Source of the DNA: Pseudomonadota bacterium
GTDB taxonomy: Bacteria > Pseudomonadota > Alphaproteobacteria > UBA11222
Assembly (NCBI GenBank): GCA_049323435.1
Contig: JBMOMX010000008.1
Coordinates: 40,609-104,608, forward strand
Length of the DNA stretch: 64,000 bases
Direction: 5' to 3'
Shown here piece by piece: positions 38,315-43,748 of this stretch. The stretch's first letter is position 1; each line of letters starts with the position of its first letter. The position numbers were made by a program, and so were the translations under genes. The notes beneath the pieces were generated by a model. The model did no database searches. It was given only the letters and a program-made list of their open reading frames with translations, and was not told the DNA's origin.

Positions 38315-38695
38315 ATGACCGCAGCCAGCCTGGTGCAATCCGAACCCTGTTTTAGCAGCCTGCGCGTGGATAAATGGCTATGGCATTGCCGGATTTTCAA
38401 AAGCCGGTCTGCTGCCGCCCGTTTTGTCAGCACCGGCAGGATGCGTGTCAACAGCCGGCCAATCGCCAAACCGGCCCATATATTGAAGCCCGGCGATATA
38501 TTGACCTTTGTATGGCGCGACCGGGTTCATGTGCTTCAGGTTCAGGCGCTTGGCGTGCGGCGCGGCCCGCCCTCCGCCGCGCACAGCCTTTACACCGATC
38601 TGTCCGATCCCGTACTTGCGCCCGCGCCATGCCCCATGCTAGATCGAGAATATGGTCAATCGTATTCTGGCGCTACTCACGCGGCTACCGGCTAG
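38315..38695 (+). CDS. S4-domain RNA-binding protein (Hsp15/HslR-like)
   Basis: LRVDKWLWHCRIFKSRSAAARFVSTGRMRVNSRPIAKPAHILKPGDIL is an S4 domain. Confidence 0.7.
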   Translation: MTAASLVQSEPCFSSLRVDKWLWHCRIFKSRSAAARFVSTGRMRVNSRPIAKPAHILKPGDILTFVWRDRVHVLQVQALGVRRGPPSAAHSLYTDLSDPVLAPAPCPMLDREYGQSYSGATHAATG

Positions 38696-39119
38696 GCAGG
38701 CGGCGCAAAATCCCGTTAATACCCCAACGGAAAAGCATCTGGCAGCCGTGGCGCTGCTGGTTGAGGCGGCATGCCTTGACGGGCATTTCGGCGCGGTGGA
38801 ACAGGACGCCATTCAGCGCATCGCAGCCGAACGGTTCGCGCTGAATGCCGAGGAAGTTGCGACCCTGTTTACGCTGGCCCAACAGCGCCAGGACAGTTCC
38901 AACCAGCTTTTTCGCTTCACCCACGAAATCAATCAGTCCTATACCCCTGAGGAACGGGTCGAAATAGTGGAAATGCTGTGGGAAGTCGTTTATGCAGACG
39001 GGGTTTTGCATGATTATGAAGCCAATCTGATGCGCCGGATTGGCGGACTGATTTATGTATCGGACATGGATCGCGGCAATGCCCGAAAACGGGTTATGGC
39101 GCGATTGGGAATTGAGTGA
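38652..39119 (+). CDS. TerB-family (tellurite-resistance-like / DjlA N-domain-like) protein
   Basis: 155 aa helical protein with the TerB-like fold signature. Overlaps the S4 gene 3' end. Confidence 0.6.
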   Translation: MVNRILALLTRLPARQAAQNPVNTPTEKHLAAVALLVEAACLDGHFGAVEQDAIQRIAAERFALNAEEVATLFTLAQQRQDSSNQLFRFTHEINQSYTPEERVEIVEMLWEVVYADGVLHDYEANLMRRIGGLIYVSDMDRGNARKRVMARLGIE

Positions 39120-39170
39120 TAAGCAGTGCCGCCAGTTATTCTGGACAGGGCGCGATTTACGGAGGATTGG

Positions 39171-39503
39171 ATGACTTATATCGTCACAGAGGCCTGCATT
39201 AAGTGCAAATTCATGGACTGTGTGGAGGTCTGTCCCGTGGACTGTTTCTACGAGGGCGAGAACATGCTGGTGATTCACCCGGATGAATGTATTGACTGTG
39301 GCGTTTGTGAGCCGGAATGCCCGGCCGAGGCCATTGTCCCGGACACCGAGCCGGGCCATGAGAAAATTGCCGGGGTTAACCGCGAATATGCCCTGAAATG
39401 GCCCAATATCACCGTCGCGGGCACCCCGCCCGATGATGCCGAGGATTTCAAGGGCGTGGACGGCAAGTTTGACAAATATTTCAGCCCTAAACCGGGCCAT
39501 TGA
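39171..39503 (+). CDS. fdxA: 7Fe ferredoxin ([3Fe-4S][4Fe-4S])
   Basis: [55 protein letters not shown] is the canonical FdxA cysteine pattern. Confidence 0.9.
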
Positions 39504-39627
39504 TGCTGTTTGCGGCGGGCCGGCCTAACATGTGCGCCCGCCTGTCTTTTTTTGCGCTGTAACCAGTTCTTAGGAAAAATCCGGCATAGTGCGTGCCGTG
39601 AATTCATCCAAAAGGGCGGGTAGACTG

Positions 39628-40419
39628 ATGGCGCAATTTAAAACTCGGCCGTTTAGCGCCGAGATCCAGCTTATGAACCAGACAAATGGCGCAGCAGGGG
39701 CGGCGGGATCATTTAACGCCGTCCCGCCTGTGGTGCTGCGTCCGGCCGCTTTTTCCGGCCAGGCCGAAATATTGGCGGCCATCGCGGCGCTGCGTGAAGA
39801 GCTGTTCAACAGATCAGGCGATAGCGATACCGGCGCCGCAATGGCGATGGTCACCGATAAAATGCTGCAAACCCATAGCCGCGATATTGAAGACGCCAAA
39901 AAGCTGAAGGCGGAAATTGATTCGCTTTCTTCGGCGATTGACACGACAAAACGTGAAATCGCGTCCATGCGCTACAAGGACGCGAACCGTTATGAACGCA
40001 TAACCGATGTCACCCACGAACTGGATGAAGTTGTGTTCGACACCGAACGCGCGACAGAAAATATTCTGTCCAGTTGCGAAGAAATCGAACGCCATATCGA
40101 CCAGATTGAGTTGCAGGCCAGCTCACCCGATGAGCGCGCCGAAATTCAGGCGCTGGGACAGAAGGTTGTCAAGATTTACGAAGCCTGTAACTTTCAGGAT
40201 ATTACCGGCCAGCGCATAACCAAAGTCGTGAACACCCTGAAATTCATTGAACAGCGTCTTGATGTCATGATGTCTATCTGGGGCGGCCGGGAGGAATTTG
40301 ATTCCATCGAATTGCCGGAAGCAGAAGTCGCGCATGAAGATGATTTATTGCTGAACGGCCCCGCCCGCGAAGGCGGCGACAGTGTCAGCCAGGCCGATAT
40401 CGACGCGCTGTTCGATTAG
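39628..40419 (+). CDS. cheZ: CheZ-like chemotaxis phosphatase (distant CheZ homolog)
   Basis: NFQDITGQRITKVVNTLKFIEQRL matches the CheZ catalytic helix ([24 protein letters not shown], catalytic D/Q). C-terminal LLNGP...DIDALFD matches the CheZ CheY-binding tail. Confidence 0.6.
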   Translation: MAQFKTRPFSAEIQLMNQTNGAAGAAGSFNAVPPVVLRPAAFSGQAEILAAIAALREELFNRSGDSDTGAAMAMVTDKMLQTHSRDIEDAKKLKAEIDSLSSAIDTTKREIASMRYKDANRYERITDVTHELDEVVFDTERATENILSSCEEIERHIDQIELQASSPDERAEIQALGQKVVKIYEACNFQDITGQRITKVVNTLKFIEQRLDVMMSIWGGREEFDSIELPEAEVAHEDDLLLNGPAREGGDSVSQADIDALFD

Positions 40420-40457: not shown

Positions 40458-40687
40458 GTCATTGCTGTAAGAGTCAGACAATTCGCTGACAAGATTGCGG
40501 CGTTAATGGACTTAAAAAACGCTGTCACCCCGCACTTGTTGCGGGGTCCAGGGTTACAAACTCAGGCCTTCATTTGAGACTCCTGGACCCCGGAATAAAT
40601 CCGGGGTGACAATCTTTTTTAAGTCTTCGAACCTTCACTTAACCCAGGTTTCTTGTCAGCGAATTATCTGACTTCTACAGCAATGAC
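40458..40687. repeat. 230-bp nested palindromic element. 36-bp outer inverted repeats (GTCATTGCTGTAAGAGTCAGACAATTCGCTGACAAG / rc) enclose an 89-bp MITE.
   Basis: Outer arms 40458-40493 and 40652-40687 match 34/36 as reverse complements. Inner flanks ACTTAAAAAA / TTTTTTAAGT are also inverted. Confidence 0.75.
40523..40611. repeat. 89-bp MITE with hairpin TIRs (TGTCACCCCGCA...TCCGGGGTGACA) and internal GGTCCAGG/CCTGGACC repeat. Miniature derivative of the GIY-YIG element at 27.1 kb.
   Basis: Termini identical to the ends of the 27129-28623 element. Each end is itself a 8-9-bp-stem hairpin. Confidence 0.75.
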
Positions 40688-40744: not shown

Positions 40745-41572
40745 TCACCCGCCCTGCCATTTGGCCGGGCGTTTTTCCAGCCAGGCGGCAATGCCTTCCA
40801 CCGCGTCCGGGTGATTGACCGCTTCATCCAACAGCCGCTCTGATTCTTCCACCGCCGCATTCAGCGGGCGGTGCAGATCGGCGTAAAGCTGGCGCTTGGT
40901 CATACGCAAGCTGCCCGGCGAATTTTTCTCCGCCAGCATGGCGGCGTAATCGCGCACATGCGCCATCAATTCGCCTTCCGGCAGAACCTTGTTCAGCAGC
41001 CCCATCGCAAACGCTTCTTCGGCCAGAAACACCCGGCTGGACAGCAGAATATCCGCCGCATGGGTGACCCCAACCAGCCGCGGCAGCACCCACGAGAGAC
41101 CAAATTCCGCCGGATAGTTCAGCTTGCCATGCGCGGTGGTGAATTTCGCCCCCGCCGCCGCAAAACGCAGATCCGCAAAGCAGGCCAGCACCAGCCCTAC
41201 CCCCGCCACCGCGCCGTTAATGGCGGCGATCACCGGCTTGCTCAGCCCATAATGATAGGCAAAAGTGGCGTCAAATTCCGGCTGCACGCCAAAGCCTGGC
41301 CTGGCAATGTCATCGGTTGTGCCGCTGTCATAGCCGCCGCGTTCGGCATGGCCGCTGACCGCCGCCGTATCCGCGCCGGGGCAAAAGGCGCCGCCTTCCG
41401 GATCGCCGGTCACCACAATGACCCGCACCGCCGGATCGTTTTCCGCCAGGGCCAGCACATGGCGGTATTCCATATGCATGCGTCCGGTCCAGGCGTTCTT
41501 GCGCCGGGGCCGTGACAGCGTGAGTGTGGCGATCTGATTTTCAACGCCGTAGCGGATGGTCTTGAGTTCCAT
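40745..41572 (-). CDS. Enoyl-CoA hydratase/isomerase family protein
   Basis: Crotonase fold motifs (VVTGDPEGGAFCPGAD). Confidence 0.85.
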   Translation of the reverse strand: MELKTIRYGVENQIATLTLSRPRRKNAWTGRMHMEYRHVLALAENDPAVRVIVVTGDPEGGAFCPGADTAAVSGHAERGGYDSGTTDDIARPGFGVQPEFDATFAYHYGLSKPVIAAINGAVAGVGLVLACFADLRFAAAGAKFTTAHGKLNYPAEFGLSWVLPRLVGVTHAADILLSSRVFLAEEAFAMGLLNKVLPEGELMAHVRDYAAMLAEKNSPGSLRMTKRQLYADLHRPLNAAVEESERLLDEAVNHPDAVEGIAAWLEKRPAKWQGG

Positions 41573-41624
41573 GGCCCGTCCCTATATGACAGCTTCAGCC
41601 ACTAATTTTTGTGCGAGGCACCTC

Positions 41625-42404
41625 ATGGCCGAAGAGAAGCGCCCATCCTCTATCCCCAGTCTGGCCGCTGTCAAGCTGGATACCCCGCCAGACAGGGTTT
41701 TTGCGGATGCAAAACCGCAGACCGATTTCAAATTCGGCGCGGAAACCGTGCGCGTATTTGACGATATGGTCAGCCGCTCCGTGCCCTATTATGATGAAAT
41801 GCAGCGCATGACGGCGGAACTGGCGCGCGATTTTGCGCAACCCGATACCCGTCTGTATGATCTTGGCTGTTCCACCGCCACCACATTGGCCATGCTGCAT
41901 TATACGGTGGACCCCGGCGTGCAGTTTGTGGGCGTGGATAATTCGCCCGAAATGCTGGCCAAGGCGCGCGAGAAACTGACCAGCCTTGGCATCACCCGGC
42001 CGGTCGATCTGCAACTGTCGGATATTGAAAAAATGCCGCCTTTGCACGACGCCAGCGTGGTGGTGATGAACCTGACTTTGCAATTCGTGCGCCCGCTGCA
42101 CCGCGAACGCCTGGTCAAGCAGATTTATGACGGCATGCTGGATCGCGGCGCCTTTATTCTGATCGAAAAGCTGACCGTATCGGATGGCGATCTGAACCGG
42201 CTGTTCATCAATTATTATTACGACATGAAACGGCGCAACGGATATTCAGAACTGGAAATTGCGCAAAAACGCGAAGCGCTCGAAAATGTGCTGATCCCCT
42301 ACCGGCTGGAAGAAAATGTAGAATTGCTGAAAGGTGCTGGCTTTCGCAGCGTCGAGATGTTTTTCCGCTGGTATAATTTTTGCGGACTGGTCGCCGTGAA
42401 ATGA
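41625..42404 (+). CDS. cmoA: Carboxy-S-adenosyl-L-methionine synthase
   Basis: Strong colinear similarity to E. coli CmoA: VFDDMVSRSVPYY, YDLGCS, VDNSPEM, NLTLQF, NGYSELEIAQKREALENV, YNFCGLVAVK. Confidence 0.85.
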   Translation: MAEEKRPSSIPSLAAVKLDTPPDRVFADAKPQTDFKFGAETVRVFDDMVSRSVPYYDEMQRMTAELARDFAQPDTRLYDLGCSTATTLAMLHYTVDPGVQFVGVDNSPEMLAKAREKLTSLGITRPVDLQLSDIEKMPPLHDASVVVMNLTLQFVRPLHRERLVKQIYDGMLDRGAFILIEKLTVSDGDLNRLFINYYYDMKRRNGYSELEIAQKREALENVLIPYRLEENVELLKGAGFRSVEMFFRWYNFCGLVAVK

Positions 42405-43141
42405 GCTTTCAGGACAGGATCATTCAAACCGGCGGCTGGTTTTTCAAATACCGCAATATTGCATTTCCCGCGGTGCTGCTGGCGCTCTTCATCTTGCTGC
42501 CGCCCAGGCCGTTTATGGGCAGCCCGGTGATTGACGCCTGGCTGGATATGCTGGGCCTGTTGCTGGCGCTGGCCGGTTCGGGCCTGCGCGCCTGGGTGAT
42601 CGGCCTGGCCTATATCAAGCGCGGCGGGCTGGATAAAAAAGTCCATGCCGATACGCTGGTCAGTTCCGGCATGTTCGCGGTGTGCCGCAATCCGCTTTAT
42701 GTGGGCAACGCGCTGGTGCTGCTGGGCCTGTTTGTGGTGCATAATAATGCGCTGGCCTATCTGCTTGGCCTGATATTTTTTGGCGCAGCCTATTGGGGCA
42801 TTATTGCCGCCGAAGAAAAATTTCTGGCGGAAAAATTTGGCGAAGACTATCGCGCCTACTGCGCCCGGGTTAACCGCTTCTGGCTGAATTTCAGCGGCTA
42901 CAAAGACGCCGTGGAAGGCATGCGCTTCAACTGGCGCCGCGTTGTGATCAAGGATTACTCCACCCTTTATACCTGGATTGCCGGCATGATGGTGCTGATC
43001 GCCTGGGAACATGCGCATTGGGGCGGCGGGTCATTTATTGACGCGCTGGAATCCGTTCTTATCCCGCTTGCCATCGCCACGGGGGTCACTTTGCTGGTGC
43101 GCGTCCTGAAAAAACGCGGCGTGCTGTCGGAACAGGTGTAA
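42401..43141 (+). CDS. ICMT/PEMT-family integral membrane methyltransferase, translationally coupled to cmoA
   Basis: ATGA start/stop overlap with cmoA. Multi-TM. RNPLYVGN (RHPxY-type) and EEKFLAEKFGEDYRAYCARV (EE..L...FG..Y..Y) motifs of the isoprenylcysteine carboxyl / phospholipid methyltransferase family. Confidence 0.7.
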   Translation: MSFQDRIIQTGGWFFKYRNIAFPAVLLALFILLPPRPFMGSPVIDAWLDMLGLLLALAGSGLRAWVIGLAYIKRGGLDKKVHADTLVSSGMFAVCRNPLYVGNALVLLGLFVVHNNALAYLLGLIFFGAAYWGIIAAEEKFLAEKFGEDYRAYCARVNRFWLNFSGYKDAVEGMRFNWRRVVIKDYSTLYTWIAGMMVLIAWEHAHWGGGSFIDALESVLIPLAIATGVTLLVRVLKKRGVLSEQV

Positions 43142-43202: not shown

Positions 43203-43748
43203 TCAGGCGAATTGCGGTGCGCGGTTGCGCGCCAGCGCGTTGCGCAGCGCTTCGGCAAATTCAAGCCGCTCGCCGGCGGTCAGGAATTTTCCGAACACCA
43301 GATATTTCCCGTGCGAGCGCACCGCAAGCAGCGGCGCGTCCGGGTTGGCGGTGATCAGTTCGACCTGCGCCCAATAGGCCTGTAAATTCCAGCTCAGGAT
43401 GCGCCCATCCGGAAGAAAGCGGCGGATCAGCAGCGAAGCGTCATCAAGCTGCACCGTTTCATAAATTCTGGCCGCCCGGAAATTCACCTGGAACGCCACA
43501 TAAATCAGGATCACATCCAGCCCGAAAAAACCCAGCACCGGCCAGGCGCCCATCGTGAAGAAGCACAGGCCGGCAATAAAGCTGAACACCGTAATGCAGG
43601 TCATTACGGTCATGAAACCGCGCCGGCTGAGCGAGCGCTGCGGGTACAGCACCGCATCAAAACGCAGGCCCCCGGCAGTGCGGCCCACCGCGCTGTCCGT
43701 TGAAATTTCCGGTGTGATTTCCAGTGTCATAAGCTCTGCCCGTTGCAT
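43203..43748 (-). CDS. Hypothetical membrane protein (DUF2244-like, 2 TM + PH-like domain)
   Basis: Two adjacent TM helices followed by a soluble domain. No catalytic motifs. Confidence 0.5.
   Translation of the reverse strand: MQRAELMTLEITPEISTDSAVGRTAGGLRFDAVLYPQRSLSRRGFMTVMTCITVFSFIAGLCFFTMGAWPVLGFFGLDVILIYVAFQVNFRAARIYETVQLDDASLLIRRFLPDGRILSWNLQAYWAQVELITANPDAPLLAVRSHGKYLVFGKFLTAGERLEFAEALRNALARNRAPQFA

Follow-up and report, generated by a model that had tools for sequence, protein, structure and literature searches.

The 64,000-nucleotide stretch of DNA analysed here (called the window in its full length: positions 40,609 to 104,608 of the forward strand of contig JBMOMX010000008.1, assembly GCA_049323435.1), which comes from an uncultured alphaproteobacterium of the lineage UBA11222, carries a cmoA-like gene overlapping a gene for a membrane protein of the ICMT/PEMT superfamily. 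It is likely that the membrane protein uses carboxy-S-adenosylmethionine (Cx-SAM) to carboxymethylate a membrane-associated acceptor. A sequence-only reading of the same DNA had already suggested that cmoA might be functionally coupled to this transferase for a Cx-SAM-dependent modification of a membrane substrate, and the suggestion is now supported by the conserved adjacency of the two genes, by chorismate mutase domains found fused to the membrane protein, and by the invariant Arg199 (E. coli numbering) of the CmoA partners. In the mechanism we propose, cytoplasmic CmoA would turn S-adenosylmethionine (SAM) and prephenate into Cx-SAM; the co-translated ICMT-fold protein, with its active site at the cytoplasmic face, would bind Cx-SAM; and the -CH2-COO- group would be moved to a nucleophile on a molecule entering from the membrane. 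We infer that Cx-SAM, and not SAM, is the donor. The logic of CmoA with a dedicated transferase is already known; the fold of the transferase, its membrane location and hence the acceptor class are new.

The gene pair and its conservation

The cmoA-like gene (41625..42404, + strand) encodes a protein of 259 amino acids, a predicted Cx-SAM synthase belonging to a clade linked to the membrane transferase, and the second gene (42401..43141, + strand) encodes a protein of 246 amino acids with the six-helix ICMT/PEMT fold, a predicted Cx-SAM-dependent carboxymethyltransferase. The stop codon of cmoA and the start codon of the transferase gene share the sequence ATGA (42401..42404, + strand), through which the two genes would be translationally coupled. 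The start at 41625 agrees with the homologues at two other loci (L002 and L003), which align from residue 1, and with the public call MFZ5834068.1, also of 259 amino acids. This accession ('CmoA') and MFZ5834069.1 ('methyltransferase family protein') are the NCBI copies of the exact proteins, from the metagenome-assembled genome of an uncultured member of the Pseudomonadota. A promoter or terminator internal to the pair was ruled out, no such site standing above chance between both genes.

The window CmoA passes the curated NCBIfam equivalog model TIGR00740 (238.9 bits, the cut-off being 193.3) and falls below the narrower enterobacterial model NF011995 (178.8 against 285). It is 40% identical to E. 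coli CmoA, and aligns over the whole catalytic domain with the structures of E. coli CmoA (4GEK, 4IWN) and of H. influenzae YecO (1IM8), at E-values of 1e-47 to 1e-48 (1e-48 for PDB entry 4GEK). The sequence-only reading had described the pair as CmoA with an ATGA overlap onto a polytopic ICMT/PEMT-family membrane protein carrying RNPLY and EEKFLAEKFGEDYRAYCARV motifs. Both open reading frames and the shared ATGA are confirmed; the TIGR00740 score and the end-to-end alignment with the E. coli structures bear out the first identification, and the passing of the Pfam model PF04191, the six helices and the presence of both motifs bear out the second.

CmoA is known to carboxylate SAM using prephenate (PMC10491745), and the window CmoA is predicted to catalyse the conversion of SAM and prephenate to Cx-SAM and phenylpyruvate, which the chorismate mutases fused to the module or beside it support indirectly. 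In E. coli CmoA the guanidinium group of Arg199 forms a salt bridge with the extra carboxylate of Cx-SAM, and the cofactor-binding residues, whose roles are listed in the same work, include Tyr39, Asp62, Gly64, Asp89 and Phe137 (PMC3663124). These six residues and Glu164 (E. coli numbering) are kept in 73/73 CmoAs linked to a membrane transferase, including that of the window, in which the alignments place the equivalent of Arg199 at Arg216 (codon at 42270..42272, + strand; role per PMC3663124). Ser66, Asn90 and Asp117 are nearly invariant across the same 73 proteins, and Asn132, variable among them, is retained by the window CmoA. The linked CmoAs are 46-99% identical among themselves and only 32-41% identical to E. 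coli CmoA, and they have clade-specific motifs absent from the E. coli protein (among them KREALENVLIPY[RH]xEEN and NRLFI).

The pair was sampled from both sides. For the membrane protein, one genome per GTDB species was scanned, giving 80 loci, a sample biased to relatives of the alphaproteobacterial query; for CmoA, metagenomes were scanned with a CmoA alignment, which gave a further 80 loci. As detected by tblastn, cmoA lies directly upstream of the membrane gene and on the same strand in 76/80 genome loci (76 of the 79 informative ones, L068 being uninformative because it holds just 200 nt of upstream sequence), and the membrane gene lies directly downstream of CmoA in 64/80 metagenome loci (64 of 69 informative; 11 contigs end too early). 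The adjacency that the earlier reading had noted in one stretch of DNA is conserved in these two samples amid unrelated flanks, and the pairing is far beyond chance.

The pair-bearing genome loci span at least 10 phylum-level labels. By label, the genome loci comprise Alphaproteobacteria (42, including 20 isolates of Rhizobium, Pararhizobium, Mycoplana, Ensifer or 'Rhizobiales'), Gammaproteobacteria (15), unclassified Proteobacteria/Pseudomonadota (3), Deltaproteobacteria/Myxococcales (2), Nitrospirota (2), Acidobacteriota (1), Planctomycetota (2), Verrucomicrobiota (3), Gemmatimonadota (3), Omnitrophota (1), Eiseniibacteriota (1), Hydrogenedentota (1) and unclassified (4); the cultured carriers include Rhizobium, Ensifer and Gemmatirosa. 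Among 77 pairs, the genes overlap in 15 and are separated by 0-20 nt in 47, by 21-60 nt in 12 and by 61-150 nt in three, an overlap or a gap of at most 20 nt being found in 62 of the 77. The pairwise identities of both proteins correlate over 73 complete pairs (Pearson 0.82, Mantel p = 0.001): CmoA and the membrane protein co-evolve. The membrane gene was also found on eighteen plasmid or chromid records (Ensifer, Rhizobium, Sinorhizobium, Gemmatirosa). On the conjugative megaplasmid of Rhizobium sp. T1470 (L170:1-12666), whose orthologue of the window transferase is WP_208245986.1, the pair stands alone amid three group II intron reverse transcriptases and IS630/IS21 transposases, a setting among insertion sequences and introns which suggests that the module may move horizontally as a unit.

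Chorismate mutase, CmoB and the donor

Prephenate, the substrate that CmoA uses together with SAM, is the product of chorismate mutase. In five family members (P0190, P0208, P0212, P0221 and P0227) the membrane transferase continues at its C-terminus into a chorismate mutase type II domain (PF01817, 56-66 bits), and in 4/4 contexts read the gene next after the fusion is cmoA-like, 48-51% identical to that of the window and with the motif QRKREALENV. Free chorismate mutase genes were found upstream in L027, behind cmoA at the contig end in L094 and, on the opposite strand, downstream of the pair in L061. A chorismate mutase fused to DAHP synthase adjoins the module in L060 and L067, and L115 probably has the same fusion. 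Among unselected loci, chorismate mutase adjoins the module in 6 of about 160, where well under one would be expected (an estimate based on 1-2 such genes per genome). This three-way association of CmoA, transferase and chorismate mutase is hard to explain unless the membrane reaction depends on the product of CmoA.

A tblastn search with E. coli CmoB as the query (E ≤ 1e-5) gave no CmoB homologue, neither in the window nor in the 4-10 kb around each of about 165 loci. The gene downstream of cmoA in the window is itself no CmoB homologue, giving no tblastn match and having the ICMT fold instead. The CmoA-CmoB system is distributed mainly in the Gammaproteobacteria and one further proteobacterial class, with some Deltaproteobacteria (PMC6063277). 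Given this distribution, most hosts of the module, the alphaproteobacterium of the window included, are probably without CmoB. The further class is probably the Epsilonproteobacteria.

These results bear on a more conventional explanation, namely that the membrane protein methylates lipids or prenylcysteines with SAM in the ordinary way, that CmoA serves the synthesis of 5-carboxymethoxyuridine (cmo5U) in tRNA together with a CmoB encoded elsewhere, and that the adjacency reflects co-regulation or a shared SAM economy and no common chemistry. The characterised ICMT, PEMT and LmtA enzymes all use SAM, and the RefSeq labels of the two proteins ('tRNA modification' and 'isoprenylcysteine carboxylmethyltransferase family protein') agree with it. 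We consider it quite improbable, since the adjacency is seen in at least 10 phyla, amid unrelated flanks, and was recovered in both sampling directions, the two proteins co-evolve, the membrane protein is fused in some cases to chorismate mutase, which would be without a role in a SAM-only reaction, and cmoB is near none of the loci searched. The pair is moreover found in Alphaproteobacteria, Planctomycetota, Verrucomicrobiota, Nitrospirota and other groups outside the main CmoA-CmoB classes (PMC6063277).

The membrane transferase and its relatives

The membrane protein of the window passes the Pfam PEMT model PF04191 (43.6 bits against a cut-off of 25; core match of about 100 residues) and, with this score, an ICMT-type helical fold and the cofactor motifs R-x-P-x-Y and EE...FG..Y, belongs to the superfamily. 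The family comprises 339 representatives (50% identity clusters) in an exhaustive profile search at E ≤ 1e-30. An AlphaFold2 model (66 sequences; predicted local distance difference test, pLDDT, 92; predicted template modelling score, pTM, 0.87) has six long helices (residues 3-32, 42-69, 98-114, 117-146, 178-208 and 212-238). The cofactor-binding motif of ICMT/PEMT proteins corresponds to RNPLY (residues 96-100; 42686..42700, + strand), which is invariant and aligns with RHPSY of Tribolium ICMT and RHPMY of Ma-ICMT, and profile alignment identifies EEKFLAEKFGEDYRAYCARV (residues 138-157; 42812..42871, + strand) as the cofactor-binding helix shared with ICMT. Within the 66 family sequences E138, E139, L142, F146 and Y153 are invariant, and I134 nearly so.

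Two further elements are of interest for the donor. Profile alignment to 5VG9 pairs Arg63 (codon at 42587..42589, + strand; invariant in 66 sequences) with Arg173 of Tribolium ICMT, and a family-specific loop, Y71-I-K-R74-G-G (42611..42628, + strand), defined by invariant columns and a motif census, lies between helices 2 and 3; its motif across the family is Y-[IV]-x-R-G-G, with Arg74-Gly-Gly invariant. According to a review, Arg173 and Arg246 of Tribolium ICMT hold the substrate carboxylate (PMC8358657). The position of that Arg246 is occupied in the profile alignment by the near-invariant Ile134, four residues ahead of EE. In CmoB the carboxylate of Cx-SAM is contacted by Lys91 and Arg315, and in phage CmoX by an Arg. 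As the carboxymethyl group has to be positioned between sulfonium and acceptor, a basic residue at that point could act like Lys91/Arg315 of CmoB, and by this analogy Arg74 and/or Arg63 are candidate binders of the Cx-SAM carboxylate.

Fusion proteins give indications on topology. One of them (P0183, 442 amino acids) consists of the family domain, an extra hydrophobic helix, an Ala/Pro/Lys-rich linker and an OmpA-type peptidoglycan-binding domain. The C-terminus of the transferase would be cytoplasmic, because the fused chorismate mutase is a cytoplasmic enzyme and because P0183 adds a helix before its periplasmic OmpA domain; from six helices and a cytoplasmic C-terminus it follows that the N-terminus would be cytoplasmic as well, and so would the loop joining helices 2 and 3. 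Several invariant basic residues (R18, R63, R74, R96, R159, R180, K184 and K237) would accordingly sit on the cytoplasmic side, on a face as well suited to an anionic lipid as to an anionic cofactor.

Cx-SAM is a rare cofactor. Its described users are CmoB, TglF, MccB's C-terminal domain and, since 2025, phage CmoX, and the acceptor classes described are tRNA, a peptide thiol, a peptidyl-nucleotide and phage DNA (PMC10491745, PMC12783734). As with CmoB, TglF, MccB and CmoX, the transferase gene studied here is encoded beside the gene of the Cx-SAM synthase and inherited with it. The E. coli CmoA-CmoB system (yecO-yecP) has the same first gene, and the synthase gene is likewise followed by an overlapping transferase gene, but CmoB is a soluble Rossmann-fold protein with its own N-terminal domain (the one with Lys91), whereas the protein found here is an ICMT-fold membrane protein. 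In E. coli K-12 the gene yecN (b1869, L001:2267-2662), for a MAPEG-family inner membrane protein, is located 40 nt upstream of cmoA-cmoB, so that the canonical operon, too, adjoins a gene for a small membrane protein. In TglE/TglF (3-thiaglutamate), MccS/MccB (Bacillus microcin C) and phage CmoA/CmoX (5-carboxymethylcytosine), a CmoA homologue also feeds a dedicated neighbouring transferase; unlike the membrane protein, TglF, MccB and CmoX have soluble class I or DNA C5-methyltransferase folds and act on peptide, nucleotide or DNA, and the membrane pair differs from these systems in having no biosynthetic cluster or phage context around it. No description of CmoA or Cx-SAM with an ICMT/PEMT-type membrane transferase was found in the literature searched, most subscription papers being outside the search, so that within these bounds the use of Cx-SAM proposed by the earlier reading is, as it had supposed, unreported.

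The position of the membrane gene after cmoA, which is that of cmoB, and the overlapping junction, the same as in E. coli cmoA-cmoB, could also mean that the membrane protein is a non-orthologous replacement of CmoB, carboxymethylating 5-hydroxyuridine at position 34 of tRNA (ho5U34) at the membrane surface, and ICMT active sites do face the cytoplasm. Such a role is extremely improbable for a six-helix integral membrane protein with a buried ICMT-type cofactor pocket and no RNA-binding domain, and we know of no ICMT-fold enzyme that acts on nucleic acid. The chorismate mutase or DAHP synthase genes adjoining the module, and the dedicated chorismate mutase-DAHP synthase in particular, suggest furthermore a flux above what tRNA modification would need.

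Among characterised membrane enzymes, the nearest curated family is LmtA (the Leptospira lipid A Kdo2 1-phosphate O-methyltransferase, TIGR04571), which has a similar size and membrane architecture: residues 5-235 of the window protein match positions 5-235 of the model (of 252), and 66/66 family members match it over nearly their full length. The window protein, with 89.1 bits against a cut-off of 325, is therefore not LmtA, and the best match among the 66 relatives (2e-28) is also far under the cut-off. LmtA uses SAM, and to our knowledge it has no linkage to cmoA. ICMT/Ste14 (4A2N, 5V7P, 5VG9) shares with the window protein the fold, the RNPLY and EE..L...FG..Y cofactor motifs and the equivalent of Arg173 (Arg63), but the invariant Y-[IV]-x-R-G-G loop and an N-terminal R18-N19 motif are gains of the family studied here. 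The ICMT models are not passed (PF04140, 16.9 bits against 24; NF040696 isopcys_mtase, 50.9 against 160), and with Ile134 in place of Arg246 the membrane protein is not a strict ICMT. PEMT/Opi3 and MddA, of the same Pfam clan, are likewise membrane-embedded SAM-family transferases, for lipid headgroups or small hydrophobic nucleophiles; their match is in contrast limited to the core of about 100 residues, and the family shows no sign of an amine or thiol acceptor.

Genomic surroundings and the acceptor

For the neighbour survey, all open reading frames of 80 loci were clustered and Pfam was run on the 267 genes located within two positions of the pair. The neighbours include eight response regulators, about seven class I methyltransferases, at least five PEMT paralogues, three PAP2 proteins, three chorismate mutases and two DAHP synthases. 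There is no other consistently kept gene family, and the conserved unit is therefore the pair, which is best read as a self-contained two-gene operon. A dedicated biosynthetic cluster or a conserved third partner was also considered and dropped, since no neighbour family dominates.

Several observations weigh against a Cx-SAM-dependent membrane transferase. The neighbourhoods (80 loci, 267 genes) give no clear pointer to the acceptor; the closest characterised relatives of the membrane protein (LmtA, ICMT, PEMT and MddA) are all SAM-dependent; and we know of no natural membrane lipid with an enzymatically added carboxymethyl group. Three membrane genes of the genome sample are without an adjacent cmoA: in L060 and L067 a chorismate mutase-DAHP synthase gene occupies its place, and in L072 the membrane gene is accompanied by a MarR gene and an unrelated, ArsM-like class I methyltransferase gene downstream. 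Conversely, five CmoAs of the clade (L096, L138, L150, L167 and L168) are without an adjacent membrane gene despite room for one. The Arg-Gly-Gly loop falls in the sole unplaced segment of the structural model (residues 73-80, pLDDT below 50), although its poor placement fits a mobile lid, and the assignment of Arg74 and Arg63 to the Cx-SAM carboxylate is a guess.

Some of these exceptional loci hold features of their own. The 'cluster 1' gene of L072 was examined as a possible cmoA and rejected, being a generic Methyltransf_31 protein and not CmoA. At L138:764-1588 the partnerless CmoA is followed by a soluble class I methyltransferase of 274 amino acids, which may be another Cx-SAM user. At L150:2478-3380, in a single case, a gene for a type II CAAX prenyl endopeptidase (Rce1-like, PF02517) stands directly upstream of the transferase-less cmoA; in eukaryotic CAAX processing Rce1 acts first and ICMT follows.

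As to the acceptor of the proposed carboxymethyltransferase, we infer a general envelope lipid and not the product of a dedicated pathway. Tentatively, the module might carboxymethylate an abundant lipid of the diderm envelope (for instance at the phosphate of lipid A, of a phospholipid or of a polyprenyl phosphate), in some lineages under PmrAB-like or CusRS-like two-component control and with chorismate mutase or DAHP synthase dedicated to its supply; all the taxon labels among the 80 genome loci are diderm phyla, in a sample biased to relatives of the alphaproteobacterial query. As a single candidate acceptor we favour, though weakly, an anionic group on a lipid, for example a phosphate monoester, from the analogy with LmtA acting on the 1-phosphate of lipid A. 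OmpR-family two-component systems adjoin the pair in several lineages, with best matches of the PmrAB/QseBC or CusRS/CopRS type, all below the curated cut-offs; by a rough count they are about two-fold enriched, which is a weak lead.

On plasmid pT173d of Ensifer canadensis (L171:5218-9680), a species whose orthologue of the window transferase is WP_225968651.1, genes for CmoA, the ICMT-family protein, a response regulator, a histidine kinase and a PAP2-family phosphatase follow each other on one strand, in a layout that recalls regulated lipid-phosphate remodelling loci. The scan for the PAP2 motif gave a single strict match. A shorter PEMT/ICMT paralogue (about 211-214 amino acids, with RHPLY and no Arg-Gly-Gly loop) is encoded directly downstream of the pair in five loci (L009:1578-2213, L044:10695-11351, L051:10775-11419, L058:1685-2302 and L075:1915-2547) and occurs as a fusion with the family domain in P0123 and P0226. 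Speculatively, this paralogue might methyl-esterify the new carboxylate, in the way CmoM does on cmo5U.

A small hydrophobic or volatile nucleophile within the membrane (thiol, sulfide, amine or metalloid) would be a different kind of acceptor from a structural lipid, the products being methylthioacetate, dimethylsulfonioacetate, glycine betaine or arsenobetaine-type compounds. MddA, a protein of the ICMT family, methylates methanethiol, and the MddA model is weakly matched by 6/66 family members; some neighbourhoods contain heavy-metal-type two-component systems, CzcA-like RND pumps and P-type ATPases; L072 has its MarR regulator and ArsM-like class I methyltransferase; and no lipid-pathway neighbour is conserved. 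We nevertheless regard such an acceptor as unlikely, since the MddA matches are marginal (best 1e-5) and 66/66 members match LmtA far better (best 2e-28), the metal-related neighbours are few and partly lineage-specific, with two-component systems under every curated cut-off, and no conserved transporter or catabolic gene for such products lies nearby. A variant in which volatile amines, sulfides or arsines are carboxymethylated to betaines is very improbable.

In the window itself, the neighbours upstream of the pair encode a TerB-domain protein, a DUF3470 ferredoxin, a CheZ-like phosphatase and, divergently from cmoA, an enoyl-CoA hydratase (40745-41572, - strand; assigned by Pfam), and those downstream encode a convergent DUF2244 membrane protein, nth and a PfkB kinase. 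These flanks (38652-40419 and 43203-43748) look like housekeeping genes unrelated to the pair, and they recur, with the identical protein, on three other metagenome contigs (L087-L089). The 52-nt divergent intergenic region in front of cmoA (41573..41624), delimited by the map of open reading frames and by Pfam, is presumed to be the promoter region of the operon; a consensus scan of it gave no sigma-70-like site. Elsewhere, a FabA/ApeI-like dehydratase gene comes after a fusion-cmoA pair (L082:3118-3867), and ArnT/PMT-family glycosyltransferase genes adjoin cmoA in L086 (2588-3833) and L168 (5853-7304), too few to interpret.

If the membrane protein is a Cx-SAM-dependent carboxymethyltransferase, the use of Cx-SAM would extend to membrane chemistry, its first use beyond nucleic acids and peptides, and the protein would be the first ICMT-fold enzyme with a non-methyl donor. 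An anionic group of +58.005 Da would be predicted on lipids or other membrane-bound molecules, and if the acceptor is an envelope lipid, the products would form a new class of carboxymethylated membrane lipids. The family would also provide a natural ICMT-fold scaffold that takes an enlarged SAM analogue, useful for the engineering of bio-alkylation. The label 'CmoA, tRNA modification' is probably misleading in organisms without CmoB, and the proposal would give a testable function to the thousands of genes that are now labelled in this way or as 'isoprenylcysteine carboxylmethyltransferase family protein'.

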